Origin: Planctomycetota bacterium
GTDB lineage: Bacteria; Planctomycetota; SZUA-567; H5-PLA8
Length of the DNA: 64,000 nt
Assembly (NCBI GenBank): GCA_038227875.1
Contig: JBBRPR010000015.1
Span: 95,675-159,674, forward strand
Direction: 5' to 3'
The position numbers and the translations under genes were made by a program. This document shows positions 2,499 to 63,900 of the stretch, in pieces. How positions within the stretch are numbered: the first letter of the stretch is position 1; each line of letters starts with the position of its first letter. Under the pieces are notes generated by a model. It saw only the letters and a program-made list of their open reading frames with translations. It searched no databases and had not been told where the DNA came from.

Positions 2499-3683
2499 TC
2501 AGAACTTCCCGACCACCGCGCCGCCGCTGGAGTTCAACAGACGTGATCCGCCCTTCGCCAGCGACTTCAATGCTTTGGCGTAACGGGGGAAGGCGGAGGT
2601 TTTCATCAGAGCGACCACCGCGCCGCCGAAGCCGCCGCCGGTCATGCGCGCGCCGGGGCAGGCGCCATTTTTCTTGTTGAGCTCCGTGCAGCGCTCGACG
2701 ATGGCATCGAGTTCCGGGCAGCTCACTTCGTAGTCGAGCTGCAGGCTGGCGTGGCTGAGTGAGAGGAGGCGGCCGAGTTCCGGGATGTCGCCGCGCGTCA
2801 GGGCTGCGGCGAACTGCGCGACGCGCTGGCTTTCAGTAACGATGTGGCGCACGCGCTTGCTCTCGTTGGCGGTGAGTTTGCCCGAGAATTTGAGCAGGTG
2901 ATCGACGGTCACGGTGCGCAGCGATTTCTGGCCCATCAACTTCGCCGCGTGTTCGCATTCCGCGCGGCGCTTGTTGTATTCGCTCGAAGCGAGCTTGTGG
3001 CGCACGCCGGTATCAAAAAGTGCGAAGCTGTAACCGGTCAGCGAAATCGGAATGTTGATCACGTCCAGCGAGCGGCAGTCGAGCAGCAGCGCGTTGCCGG
3101 GTTTGGCGCGGGCGACGACGGTCTGATCCATGATCCCGCAGCGCACGCCGGCGAATTTGTGTTCGGCTTCCTGGCCGACGAAGGCGAGCTTCTGACGGTC
3201 CATGGTTTTTCCAGCCAGGGTCAGCAGCGCTAGACCGGTGGAAATCTCCAGCGCCGCGCTGCTCGAAAGGCCTGCGCCCTGCGGCAGATTGCCGGTGACA
3301 AACAAATCGCCGCCGGCGAGCTTGATGCCGCGCCGTGTCAGCGCCGCCGCGACGCCGCGCACGTAATTGCTCCAATGGAGCGCCGCGTTTTTTACCGGTG
3401 TAATATTTTTGAGCGGAAATTCATCGCGGGGCGTGCCGTGTCCGCTGGCGGCGATGACATCGGAGTAGACCGCGATTCGCGGCGCAGCATTGGCGCGGAA
3501 GAGGACCGTGGTGTGTTCGGAGACCGCGATCGGCAGCACGAGCCCGTCGTTGTAGTCGGTGTGCTCGCCGATCAGGTTGCTGCGTCCAGGCGCGCGTGCG
3601 GCGCGGATGGCGGAACCTTTGCCAAATTGCTTTTCAAACGCCGCAATGAGCGCTGCACGGTTGGAGCTCGAATTTTTTGTCAT
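2499..3683 (-). CDS. galK: Galactokinase
   Basis: APGRSNLIGEHTDYN signature, GAGLSSSAA GHMP motif, GARMTGGGFGG. Confidence 0.95.
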   Translation of the reverse strand: MTKNSSSNRAALIAAFEKQFGKGSAIRAARAPGRSNLIGEHTDYNDGLVLPIAVSEHTTVLFRANAAPRIAVYSDVIAASGHGTPRDEFPLKNITPVKNAALHWSNYVRGVAAALTRRGIKLAGGDLFVTGNLPQGAGLSSSAALEISTGLALLTLAGKTMDRQKLAFVGQEAEHKFAGVRCGIMDQTVVARAKPGNALLLDCRSLDVINIPISLTGYSFALFDTGVRHKLASSEYNKRRAECEHAAKLMGQKSLRTVTVDHLLKFSGKLTANESKRVRHIVTESQRVAQFAAALTRGDIPELGRLLSLSHASLQLDYEVSCPELDAIVERCTELNKKNGACPGARMTGGGFGGAVVALMKTSAFPRYAKALKSLAKGGSRLLNSSGGAVVGKF

Positions 3684-3727
3684 GCGCTATCCATTAACAT
3701 GGAGCGCGCGGAAAGGAAAGAGTGCTT

Positions 3728-3774
3728 TTGCAGGCGGGACGCCTGCCCCACAATTGCAGGCGTCCCGCCTGCAA
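3728..3774. repeat. REP-like inverted doublet
   Basis: Perfect 19-bp inverted repeat TTGCAGGCGGGACGCCTGC-(9 nt)-GCAGGCGTCCCGCCTGCAA; each arm is itself a hairpin (GCAGGCG-GGA-CGCCTGC). Confidence 0.75.
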
Positions 3775-3779
3775 GTGCT

Positions 3780-3900
3780 GACCTCTGGGCCCCGGGGCCC
3801 AGAGGTCGTGCGAAAATTTTTGCACAGGTCAAAATGACCCTGGTGACCATTGTCACTAGGGTTGGGAACCTGGTATTAAATTTAATACCTGGTTAAAACC
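3780..3900. repeat. Array 1 of fixed-length (18-bp) variable palindromes with conserved 5-bp flanks
   Basis: Cores 3785-3802, 3808-3825, 3841-3858, 3872-3889; flanks GACCT/AGGTC, -/AGGTC, GACCC/GGGTT, AACCT/TGGTT. Confidence 0.85.
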
Positions 3901-3910
3901 AAGCACTCAC

Positions 3911-4834
3911 TCATTTCGCGTGCGTCGTTACAGCTGACTTCGCGTTTAAGAACGATTCGAGATCCGATTCGTTTACGGCTGGCTCGCCGGGGCTGACGTT
4001 GTTCAGCTTGCCGCTCTTCATCCACTCTTCCAGGCGGTCGATTTCGCGGAAGAGGTGATCGAAGCTGTCGGCGACGAAGAGCAGCGGCTGGAAATGATCG
4101 ATTTCGAAATACTGATTCACAACCCATTCGAGCTGAAACGGATAGCGCTGCACCAGCGGCGATTCGATCGCGTGCTCGATTTCCCCGAAGGAACTGAGCA
4201 GACCGCTGCCATACACTTTGAGGTCGCCGTTGTCCTTCATTAGCCCAAATTCAATCGTGAACCAGAAGAAACGCGCCATCGCCTTGATGATGCTTTCGAC
4301 GTGACGGACCTGATCGTGCTTGTCGTCTTTGCCGGCGACGATGTCGGCGGCCGTGTTCGCGACCTCGCCGAAGCGGACCAGCACGTCGGCGAAACGGCGG
4401 TGCGTATGCATCGGCACGTGGCCGGCGACGTCGTGGAAAATATCGGGTTCAGGGAGGTAGTCGAGCGTCTGGTTGTCACGGATGGTGATCGTGGTCGGGA
4501 ATTCGCGGTTGCGCAGGCAATCGAAAAATAAAAACGCCGGGACGTAGCCGCTCACGGCTTTGGCTTTAAATCCACTGAGCGGTTCGAGGAATTTGTTGAT
4601 CTCGTCGAGGTGCGGGATGTTGTTGGGATTGAGCGCGAGGTTGTTGACGCCTTCGAGAAACTGCGAGTGCGCGTACTTTCGCCACTTGGGCAGAATACGC
4701 GCGTAGAGTCCGCGCCACGCCTCCTGATTCGCTTCGCTGTAGAGTTCGTACGGCTGCCGGATGAACAGTGCGCCGTGTTTGCGCTCTTCTTCGATGAACG
4801 GCGCTTTGGTGGTCGTGAGGCCGGGGGCGGTCAT
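3911..4834 (-). CDS. phhA: Phenylalanine 4-monooxygenase (pterin-dependent aromatic amino acid hydroxylase)
   Basis: LDYLPEPDIFHDVAGHVP (Fe-binding His pair), WFTIEFGL, YGSGLLSSFGE. Confidence 0.9.
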   Translation of the reverse strand: MTAPGLTTTKAPFIEEERKHGALFIRQPYELYSEANQEAWRGLYARILPKWRKYAHSQFLEGVNNLALNPNNIPHLDEINKFLEPLSGFKAKAVSGYVPAFLFFDCLRNREFPTTITIRDNQTLDYLPEPDIFHDVAGHVPMHTHRRFADVLVRFGEVANTAADIVAGKDDKHDQVRHVESIIKAMARFFWFTIEFGLMKDNGDLKVYGSGLLSSFGEIEHAIESPLVQRYPFQLEWVVNQYFEIDHFQPLLFVADSFDHLFREIDRLEEWMKSGKLNNVSPGEPAVNESDLESFLNAKSAVTTHAK

Positions 4835-4954
4835 GAAGTTGGCTCCTGGCTTTTAGCTCTTGGCTCTTGGGCGCAAGCGGCGGGGCGAGCCTCGTCACTA
4901 GTACTCTACTACACGACTGGGGCTCGGGGCAACTTCGTACTTGGTGCGAGGACG

Positions 4955-5893
4955 TCAACGCCGTTTGGCTTTGCGTTCTTTGAGCTTTTCGAGCACGGAG
5001 TAGGGGATCTTGAGATTGTTGGCGACGCCGGAGGCCAGTTCCACGGCGGTGTTTCCGCGGCCGGGTTCGGCGTGGAAGTCACTGCCGCCGGAGATGGCCA
5101 GGTCGTACTTCGCCGCCAGGCGCGCGCACAGTTCCGTGTCCTGGGGCGTGTGTAAACTGTAATGGACTTCAATGCCATCCATGCCCTTTTTCTTCAGATC
5201 GGCGACGAGTTCATCGAGCTCCGCTTCGTCCTTCGCTTTCAGGTACGGTGGGTGTGCGAGAATCGCCAGGCCGTCGGCGCTGTGGATCTGCTGGATCGAT
5301 TCCTCTGGGCTGGCTGCGAAGCGCGTGAAGTACGCGGGGCGGCCCTTGGAGAGAAACTTGTCGAACGCTTCCTGCTTGTTCTTGACGTAACCCTTCCGGA
5401 TCATCACCGCGGCGATGTGGGGGCGGCCGACGCTCTTGGTATCCAGCGCACCGCCGCCGTCGCCGTTGTCGACGCAACCGGCTTCCTCTTCCACTTCCTG
5501 CATGGTGATGGGCATGCCCAGTTCGTTGAGACGCTGGACGATCTGCGGATTGCGGATCTTGCGGCCGTCGGAAAGTTTCTTCAAGAACGAACGAAACGCC
5601 TGGCTGGATGGATCGACGAACAGTCCAACGATATGCATCGTGCCGCGCGCGTACTCGGCCGAAATTTCCACGCCGGAGATTGTTTCCACACCGTGGAGCT
5701 TGCCCATGTCGTGAAACGTGCGTAAACCCGCAACTGTATCGTGATCGGTCAATGCGAGTGCACGGAGTTCGAGTTGCTTGGCGAGTTCGATGAGCTTAAC
5801 GGGGGTCATTCTGCCGTCGGAGGCAGTGGAGTGGCAATGGAGGTCGATCCAATCTTTCGGCAAAGATGTGACCCTCAGTGGATGCCACCTCAC
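4955..5893 (-). CDS. PHP-domain metal-dependent phosphoesterase (TrpH/YciV-like)
   Basis: IDLHCHSTASDG, ALTDHDT, GVEIS, GRPHIA, LAHP, GGSDFH motifs; start may instead be TTG 5863. Confidence 0.9.
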   Translation of the reverse strand: MRWHPLRVTSLPKDWIDLHCHSTASDGRMTPVKLIELAKQLELRALALTDHDTVAGLRTFHDMGKLHGVETISGVEISAEYARGTMHIVGLFVDPSSQAFRSFLKKLSDGRKIRNPQIVQRLNELGMPITMQEVEEEAGCVDNGDGGGALDTKSVGRPHIAAVMIRKGYVKNKQEAFDKFLSKGRPAYFTRFAASPEESIQQIHSADGLAILAHPPYLKAKDEAELDELVADLKKKGMDGIEVHYSLHTPQDTELCARLAAKYDLAISGGSDFHAEPGRGNTAVELASGVANNLKIPYSVLEKLKERKAKRR

Positions 5894-43471: not shown

Positions 43472-43687
43472 AAATTCAAAATTCAAAAAAAATTCAAAAA
43501 CGCACGCTCTGGGAAATGGTTTGGGCTGAGTTCCTTGTTTCCCTCGGGAACGAATTCGTTCCCTGGTTAATTTCCAGCATATGGACAGCTGTCCATATGC
43601 TAACCGACCTTGTCGTAAATTTACGACGAGGTCCGCCGCTCATCCATGGCACATCATTTCCCGCGTGTGTTTTTGAATTTTGAATTG
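43472..43687. repeat. Array 2 of 18-bp variable palindromes enclosed by long inverted repeats
   Basis: Cores 43546-43563, 43580-43597, 43611-43628; outer IR aaattcaaaaacgcacgc..gggaaatg / catttccc.gcgtgtgtttttgaattt. Confidence 0.85.
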
Positions 43688-63553: not shown

Positions 63554-63860
63554 GTAAGAAGAGTAAAGCGCTGAGTGAGAAGTGGAAAGTGGAAAGACAA
63601 TGTGAGCGGGAGATTAGCTTCCAAGTCGAGGCAATATTCCCCCCAGTCGGAATTTTTGACCGGGCGTCAGTTATAAAAAAATTCTGAATGGACTCACGGT
63701 CACGGAAGTCTTTGGCGTTCAAAAACTTCGATATATTTGCCCGGCCGGACCTCAACTTTCCGCTCGAAAAACTCTTGAAATAGGGAAGGCGAGCGCCAAT
63801 ATAGCGCACCATGTCCATAACAATGTGCAGGAGATCGTTCTCCTCTTAAACAAGAGCTCC

Positions 63861-63900
63861 GGCTTGGGAAGCCAACGCTCTGCCACTGAGCTACGCCCGC
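63861..63900 (-). pseudogene. 5' half of tRNA-Gly(CCC), probable att-site remnant
   Basis: GCGGGCGTAGCTCAGTGGCAGAGCGTTGGCTTCCCAAGCC gives the acceptor 5' strand, D arm and anticodon arm; no TTCRA T-arm or 3' acceptor strand follows. Confidence 0.8.

Follow-up and report, generated by a model that had tools for sequence, protein, structure and literature searches.

What are the short palindromes that crowd the spacer between phhA and galK in a planctomycete genome? The 64,000-nucleotide stretch of Planctomycetota contig JBBRPR010000015.1 analysed here (positions 95,675 to 159,674; hereafter the window) carries in this spacer four palindromic cores of 18 base pairs (bp), perfect at 3785-3802 and 3872-3889, with one mismatch at 3808-3825 and with two at 3841-3858. 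A preliminary description of the window took them for an array of mutually unrelated palindromes of exactly 18 bp, set between constant linkers, and suggested that an enzyme captures 9-nucleotide (nt) words and copies them in inverted form. Its account of the locus itself was largely accurate: the cores, their DGGTY and RACCH flanks, the centre spacings of 23, 33 and 31 bp and the outer inverted repeat around the block are all as written, and the same grammar does recur in the window, at a second locus (43542-43633). Our analysis of the whole genome leads to a different interpretation of these observations. The real unit is a loopless palindrome of 26-28 bp in an ACC-N20-GGT frame, and we read the family, with rather more confidence than doubt, as an orphan, untagged, lineage-specific hairpin repeat resembling repetitive extragenic palindromes (REPs) and bacterial interspersed mosaic elements (BIMEs), its arms evolving in concert, probably through template switching during replication.

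The 18-bp cores are the inner part of longer palindromes. In the draft genome (9.34 Mb in 176 contigs, 59.6% G+C, 88% complete), the number of maximal perfect loopless palindromes declines as chance predicts to a half-length of about 8 and then rises to a second peak, with 54, 28 and 19 palindromes at half-lengths 13, 14 and 15 against fewer than one expected by chance. Perfect 9-nt arms that start with ACC occur 130 times at a gap of 8 nt, whereas no other gap between 0 and 20 nt yields more than 9 of them. Inner pairing among the 2160 ACC-N20-GGT sites is bimodal: the background mode lies at 2-3 of the 10 inner pairs, and at the other end all ten pairs are complementary in 80 sites, nine in 75, eight in 75 and seven in 41. 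Perfect sites at neighbouring spacings number 0 for ACC-N16-GGT, 2 for N18, 1 for N22 and 0 for N24, and the control CCA-N20-TGG has no perfect site genome-wide. The prediction that a genome scan would turn up further copies of sharply fixed length was thus borne out, with the peak at 26 bp and not at 18. The window alone already argued against chance, as had been claimed, since its four perfect 18-mer palindromes all lie within the two loci and about 0.35 were expected by arithmetic from base composition (0.26 per pair at 60% G+C).

The consensus of 310 copies with at most one mismatch in 13+13 positions is ACCyTnnnGnmAA|TTknCnnnArGGT: an ACC foot, ten variable pairs of stem and centre (some positions are partly conserved, and the middle is usually AATT) and a GGT foot, with a frequent R...Y pair extending the unit to 28 bp. 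The supposed constant linkers are therefore the outer stem of each palindrome. Flanks are near background composition; the logo shows no conserved flank beyond ±14 and no unpaired GTAG or CGTC tag, the conserved ACC and GGT being paired with each other. Complementarity in the flanks drops from 46% to 35% and 32% over positions ±14 to 16 and reaches background beyond ±16; nested insertion of units into pre-existing palindromes, being weakly supported given that fall, was set aside. The family comprises about 270-420 units (271 in the ACC frame, 424 by a wider definition), with predicted hairpin energies of -10 to -25 kcal/mol.

Far from being unrelated, the cores have partly conserved positions in common and recur across the genome. 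A single-linkage cluster at a Hamming distance of at most 2 holds 225 of the 310 copies, and the 117 perfect palindromes include 92 distinct sequences; sorted by their inner five bases, the arms prove to combine a small number of inner and outer segments in many ways. Locus 1 has units 1 to 4 and locus 2 units B1 to B3; of six cores tested from the two loci, five recur elsewhere in frame in 3-7 copies each: seven genome occurrences for the unit 4 core GGTATT...AATACC, five for the unit B1 core GGGAACGAATTCGTTCCC, and three each for the unit 1 core, the unit B2 core (as related copies) and the unit 3 type. The unit 2 core has one weak look-alike elsewhere. Where units adjoin, the junction GGTCAAAATGACC or its complement is the commonest linker, with 19 exact genome copies in either orientation against none for the reversed control. 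A subfamily of 29-30 near-identical copies keeps the 26-nt frame and has a true asymmetric TTTG loop; its members stand in unrelated flanks and in both orientations. Because identical units occur in unrelated flanks, we count this as dispersal of the unit. Separately, the genome holds a second family of loopless palindromes of about 38 bp, with the core GTGGTYGCAAA|TTTGCRACCAC, flanks GCAAAACC/GGTTTTTG and about 30 matches (for example at C2:109523, C3:42982 and C9:111895), and the GCAAA|TTTGC centre is common to it and the main family.

The two arms of a unit vary together. The clearest test used a pattern of 14 fixed bases with six pairs left open, which has 56 genome matches, 42 of them distinct, and whose reversed control has none. 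Of the 336 free-pair cells 303 are paired; shuffling the arms between copies lowers the figure to 138.8 ± 9.5, and none of 500 shuffles exceeds 170. The complementarity is not imposed by how the copies were chosen. In leave-one-out counts each inner position is paired in 73-97% of cases, and from -3 to -10 three or four Watson-Crick pair types are seen. Across the 271 members in the ACC frame, mismatches average 1.28 per 10 positions within a copy and 5.65 per 10 between copies. The family has about 180 distinct arms; 57 distinct arms are perfect, and 20 of these lie a single symmetric pair away from another perfect arm. The symmetry extends to the two central pairs, which are unable to pair in a hairpin yet tend to change symmetrically: with the TTTG subfamily excluded, 21 non-consensus central pairs (±1) are symmetric and 9 asymmetric.

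Units lie mainly outside genes and after them. About 88% are intergenic, mostly just downstream of a gene, with a median of 58 nt from the upstream stop codon to the unit centre and many at 12-30 nt. Convergent gene pairs are enriched and divergent pairs depleted: 162 of the 310 copies lie between tandem genes (57% of intergenic length), 76 between convergent genes (17%) and 30 between divergent genes (26%), with 36 in sequence called as coding and 6 at contig edges. Units are found on 66 of the 87 contigs of at least 30 kb. By the wider definition, the 424 units form 368 clusters, and the array grammar first proposed gives way to a dispersed pattern of 318 single units, 44 doublets and 6 triplets; the largest clusters contain 3-4 units and long arrays were not seen. 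Units are also mixed with other repeat families into mosaics, locus 1 being such a mosaic and locus 2 lying inside a composite repeat.

Under the REP/BIME-like reading that we favour, the 26-bp hairpin itself would be the spreading unit, as in REPs and the small dispersed repeats (SDRs) of cyanobacteria. Arm symmetry, including that of the unpairable centre, would be kept mainly by arm-to-arm copying during replication, that is, by quasipalindrome template switching, and less by selection acting copy by copy. Where a unit has come to lie in a 3' untranslated region, its stable hairpin would probably serve as a 3' end barrier or a weak terminator, a role that REPs also have and to which position and stability point. 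The earlier idea that arms are copied from one another survives in this form, template switching being the favoured source of the strict symmetry; the capture of unrelated 9-mers does not, the cores being variants of one degenerate consensus. More tentatively, the family may be a self-symmetrising micro-element, a 26-bp palindrome that disperses without a linked HUH transposase while its arms and unpairable centre are continually rewritten from each other, so that it diversifies into hundreds of different perfect palindromes. We regard this stronger claim as possible but doubtful; if true, such an element would rank with the cyanobacterial SDRs among the smallest mobile DNAs known, and would be a natural genome-scale record of the activity of template switching or of a dedicated, unknown arm-copying process.

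The search for an enzyme that might mobilise the units, in line with the preliminary description's proposal to look for co-occurring genes, gave no candidate. The Y1 transposase domain (Y1_Tnp, PF01797) has eight matches at seven loci (C24:22406-22975, C108:10658-11179 and others on C72, C9, C3, C79 and C43), comprising genes of the IS200 type, one gene resembling REP-associated tyrosine transposases (RAYTs) and one with class 3 motifs. The RAYT-like gene, on C24, scores 75.9 bits against NF047646, below the 80-bit cut-off. The gene on C108 has class-3-like motifs, read by eye as NHVH, W-T and Y..DEQ, and is flanked by a different 22-nt repeat. In this 88% complete draft, none of the seven Y1/HUH loci has a unit within 600 bp, and a link to the RAYT-like, IS200-type or class-3-like genes was rejected because none is flanked by family units. 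Each of the seven loci is instead bracketed by long inverted repeats of its own (27-91 nt, 82-96% complementary) with their own hairpins, a REPtron-like layout. None of the 23 genes that have units on both sides looks like a transposase, as judged from their first 60 residues and without a profile scan. The genome has three PF00239 serine-recombinase genes, and the 4-kb stretches around the two small ones contain no family palindrome with arms of at least 11 nt. The genes flanking locus 1 include no cas or tas gene; no genome-wide cas profile search was made.

Several points weigh against the REP/BIME-like reading. No mobilising enzyme was found, and the Y1/HUH loci are flanked by other hairpins, although a draft of this completeness could lack the cognate gene. 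The logo contains no conserved unpaired tag such as GTAG or CGTC. Insertion polymorphism and target duplication were not demonstrated: the sole pair of sites with and without units, on C15 and C20, was rejected as insertion evidence because the two units absent from the C20 copy are present in three other paralogues, so that the difference is best read as a deletion in C20. The symmetric centre variants belong to few subfamilies and may reflect only 4-6 events. Mismatches are not uniform, being commonest at ±1, 2, 9 and 10 and rare at ±3-5 and 11, and therefore some structural constraint, at the level of the hairpin or of a protein, also acts. Finally, all gene contexts depend on a simple caller that works from codon usage and was built for this analysis (6362 genes, 85% coding).

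The position of the units also invites the explanation that they are immobile transcription terminators or mRNA 3' stabiliser hairpins, evolved independently and selected as RNA. Units just past stop codons, their enrichment between convergent genes and their stable hairpins would all suit it, the RNA of locus 1 folds far better than shuffled sequences (z = -11.25), and among 162 oriented copies TTTT follows on the sense strand in 26, compared with 14 that have AAAA upstream. Intrinsic terminators, however, combine a G+C-rich hairpin with a U tract, and those 26 copies, with TTTT within 12 nt, are only about 16% of the total. Consensus scans for promoters and terminators gave nothing useful at either locus and no terminator-like site on the sense strand at locus 1. 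Selection on RNA was rejected on two further counts, as G.U mismatches are not in excess over A.C on the sense strand (53 versus 39) and the orientation of the TTTG loop is unbiased (9 versus 6). Independent origins would also not predict a fixed 26-bp length with a common ACC...GGT foot and consensus, identical units at many loci, copies between divergent genes (locus 2 among them), covariation at centre positions that cannot pair, or the lack of units in genomes of the same family. We therefore consider this explanation improbable.

Less probable still is that a dimeric protein binds the units or recombines DNA at them, such as an invertase- or resolvase-type serine recombinase with sites of 26 bp, or a nucleoid protein. 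Twofold symmetry and conserved outer and central positions are what such a protein would need, and hix and gix sites are likewise 26 bp long with a central A|T step. A related genome, G006, has two perfect copies in mobile-looking contexts: in the region L170:2541-3595 a perfect 26-bp unit lies about 30 bp past a 109-residue open reading frame (ORF) that follows a 222-residue resolvase gene, and the other copy lies beside primase/helicase genes. In the congeneric genome G012, however, the identical palindrome has unrelated neighbours, including an Xre-type helix-turn-helix gene, and no resolvase. Given this, and the lack of units around two of the three serine-recombinase genes here, we treat the single adjacency in G006 as coincidence. 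Crossover sites are few and adjacent to their recombinase, whereas these units number in the hundreds and mostly stand at the 3' ends of genes; if so many sites were active in crossover, the chromosome would be expected to be scrambled. Moreover, the arms are complementary also at half-site positions that a dimer bound to the duplex would not contact and that it would not require to be complementary, which rules out a simple operator model.

In the array model, akin to clustered regularly interspaced short palindromic repeats (CRISPR) or tandem interspaced guide RNA (TIGR) arrays, an enzyme takes up a 9-mer or mutates it, and the word is written together with its reverse complement between linkers that stay constant. 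This model could draw on the clusters of differing palindromes with recurring junctions such as GGTCAAAATGACC, on the diversity of the perfect palindromes and on a symmetry that suggests arm copying. Yet the linkers belong to the outer stem, the cores are related to one another and turn up again elsewhere in the genome, most units stand alone, no linked gene was found and matches in viral sequences are ambiguous. The model is not supported, is largely refuted and in our view has very little chance of being right.

Locus 1 occupies the intergenic spacer at 3684-3910, between the stop codon of phhA (3911-4834, minus strand; phenylalanine-hydroxylase gene, Biopterin_H, E 1e-44) and the start of galK (2499-3683, minus strand; galactokinase, GalKase/GHMP); the genes around them include those of a PHP-domain protein and an aspartyl-protease-like protein. 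Unit 1 (3780-3807, centre 3793|3794) is a perfect 14+14 loopless palindrome in the ACC-N20-GGT frame, with an RNA hairpin of -25.3 kcal/mol; in it the flanks of the 18-bp core are part of the palindrome. Unit 2 (3804-3829, core 3808-3825) is degenerate: its right arm is in frame, with GGT at 3827-3829, and its left foot has been lost to unit 1, whose end overlaps the left outer arm. AGGTC stands as a direct repeat on either side of the unit 2 core, and the unit has no further BLAST matches in the genome. Unit 3 (3837-3862, centre 3849|3850) is a 13+13 palindrome with two mismatches, and unit 4 (3867-3894, centre 3880|3881) is a 14+14 palindrome with one T/T mismatch at position ±10, reported by a repeat finder as 17-nt arms with 94% complementarity. 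GGT is thus in the fixed frame in all four units and ACC in three. A copy of the recurrent junction GGTCAAAATGACC, made of a unit end, 5 nt of A/T and the start of the next unit, spans 3827-3839.

The remainder of the block belongs to other repeats. A conventional REP-type doublet at 3726-3779, from a different hairpin family, has arms of 19 nt at 3728-3746 and 3756-3774 that are 100% complementary across a 9-nt loop. Its family, with GCAGGCGGGACGCCTGC arms in inverted copies 9 nt apart, has 61 arm matches in the genome at up to two mismatches, and the doublet segment gives 40-60 short BLAST matches elsewhere in the genome. The outer inverted repeat (3711-3727 and 3901-3917; 17 nt, 82% complementary) has no other match in the genome, and the block is therefore not a repeated miniature inverted-repeat transposable element. 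At Rfam gathering thresholds, neither locus matches a family, the sole match in the window being a tRNA at 63826-63900.

Locus 1 is not an assembly artefact, a concern raised with the first description, because contigs built separately from reads of the likely source sample show no differences over 3550-3892 and 3869-5000. Strain variants affect unit 3, with A at 3842 in contigs of runs X1, X3 and X4 and G at 3851 in those of X1 and X3; the two changes together would turn unit 3 into a perfect 26-bp (13+13) palindrome if, as we infer, they lie on one molecule. Relatives of this galK among the genome contigs searched are at most 48% identical, and the best metagenome relative (L089, 72%) has another upstream gene and lacks the palindromes.

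Locus 2, at 43542-43633, lies between divergent genes. Unit B1 (43542-43567) has a perfect 18-bp core at 43546-43563, a right arm in frame and a degenerate left outer 4 nt; unit B2 (43576-43601) is a perfect 13+13 palindrome of an AGC...GCT variant; and unit B3 (43606-43633) is a 14+14 palindrome with one mismatch in the ACC...GGT frame, at -18.1 kcal/mol. The three units sit inside a composite element of about 215 bp (43473-43686) with inverted AT-rich ends, the end motif being at 43493-43507 and its complement at 43663-43677; the ends consist of AATTCAAAA repeats followed by ACGCACGC. Besides several hairpin units, such composites contain an internal module of about 30 nt that is conserved. 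In paralogues at C17:42530-42930, C70:16300-16640 and C12:96480-96830 the units occupy matching places and differ in their symmetric centres. The end motifs occur 61 and 50 times in the genome, mostly unpaired, with 8 pairs within 900 bp, and just 27 of the 424 units lie within 300 bp of composite ends.

Among the genomes scanned, the family is expanded in this lineage only. The comparison covered about 440 genomes with one sub-pattern, which matches 56 times here and 0-2 times in each same-family genome, of which 16 were scanned. It has no match in 24 other relatives and is present in 4 of 400 genomes sampled across the phylum, in one of them in non-palindromic form. The TTTG subfamily, with 30 matches here, has none in the 16 same-family genomes.

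The suggestion that the cores be compared with phage sequences brought matches whose meaning is limited: 18 of the 80 viral pattern matches listed are near-palindromic, and we do not take them as homologues, their homology being unproven in a very large collection in which palindromes are common and from whose general pool they could come. Two viral arrangements merit description in their own right. A 58-kb viral contig of 40% G+C (G419, loci L293-L296) carries four identical perfect palindromes of 26 bp in the ACC...GGT frame, each with 1-5 more complementary flank bases whose sequence differs among units. Because it carries GCGATCGC (HIP1-type) sites, G419 is probably of cyanobacterial or cyanophage origin, and a relationship of its units to the SDRs of Nostocaceae is possible. 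The second is an array at L300:8852-9160, on a viral contig of 63% G+C, where five constant repeats of 28 nt stand just upstream of a phage terminase large-subunit gene, with portal and HNH genes close by and a Proteo-phage-1 RNA downstream. Segments of 32 nt separate the repeats, each holding an AT-centred quasi-palindrome of its own, and one of these follows the ACC...GGT frame. With its period of 60 nt, the array keeps the reading frame of a 144-residue ORF that has no Pfam match. On a related phage contig (L301), three copies of this repeat come with two palindromic segments that differ from those on L300. This array is nearer to constant linkers with variable palindromes than anything in the window, and could be a terminase recognition region.

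On these results, what looked like a new array system becomes a family of hairpin repeats, familiar in kind, and a false lead is stopped. They also describe unusually clean concerted evolution of palindrome arms, with hundreds of copies and single symmetric steps between perfect units, in a family that has burst in one lineage without a recognisable transposase. Annotators can treat the units as markers of 3' intergenic regions, and should label them neither as operators nor as CRISPRs or small RNAs. With strain-resolved data, the family could offer a natural measure of quasipalindrome correction and a way to search for whatever spreads such tiny elements.

How, then, does the family compare with known systems? 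The sections of PMC3733652 that treat REPs and BIMEs describe palindromic repeats of 20-40 bp, in high copy number, extragenic and mainly after genes, sometimes overlapping the stop codon, occurring singly or in clusters, forming mosaics with other motifs and falling into species-specific families. The same sections describe GTAG- and CGTC-tagged families associated with RAYTs and say that orphan, untagged REP-like families exist in several phyla (PMC3733652). A match of this sort had been named as something that would overturn the array hypothesis; the kind and distribution do match, though not those of a described family. The units here are likewise 26-28 bp long and able to form a stem-loop, high in copy number, extragenic and placed downstream of genes, and loci 1 and 2 are mosaic clusters, although 318 clusters are single units. 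They differ in having no unpaired GTAG or CGTC tag, in flanking no RAYT or Y1 gene of the draft as a REPtron would, in being loopless and often perfectly symmetric, hence orientation-free, and in a much higher sequence diversity with strict arm covariation. Because they have neither tag nor cognate RAYT, we file them as an orphan, untagged REP-like family.

Closer in phylum are the repeats of class 3 TnpAY1 genes: by the portions of PMC6006769 that concern them, atypical secondary structures flank these genes in Planctomycetes and Acidobacteria, and untagged hairpin repeats reach hundreds of copies in some genomes of both groups. The likeness lies in hairpins without a GTAG tag and in the class-3-like gene present here on C108; the difference is that no CnGA foot precedes the units and that none lies within 600 bp of that gene. 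The family also resembles, by description, the SDRs of another phylum, to which PMC3116915 and PMC5861425 refer. Those of Nostocaceae were reportedly (Elhai et al. 2008) mobile elements of only 21-27 nt that have a hairpin in common, supported by compensatory changes; they often lie within other repeats, no enzyme is known for them, and SDR5 is said to lie in HIP1 sites; no target motif was found for the family here.

The process that we propose for the arms has its own precedent. Quasipalindrome correction by template switching, known from E. coli genetics and comparative work, turns imperfect inverted repeats into perfect ones and makes compensatory pairs in a single event (PMC7202029, PMC8794818). 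It would fit the symmetric single-pair steps between perfect units, although it is a mutational process and not an element family. With CRISPR and TIGR arrays the likeness is superficial, a matter of constant and variable segments of fixed length: CRISPR arrays are long and built of near-identical direct repeats between unique spacers, whereas the family has no direct repeats beyond short junctions and its variable parts are interrelated and repeated elsewhere. A literature search found no description of an ACC-N20-GGT palindrome family, and four features set this one apart from other REP-like families: units that are perfectly symmetric and loopless, a length fixed to the base, very high sequence diversity coupled with strict covariation of the arms, and a burst confined to one lineage.

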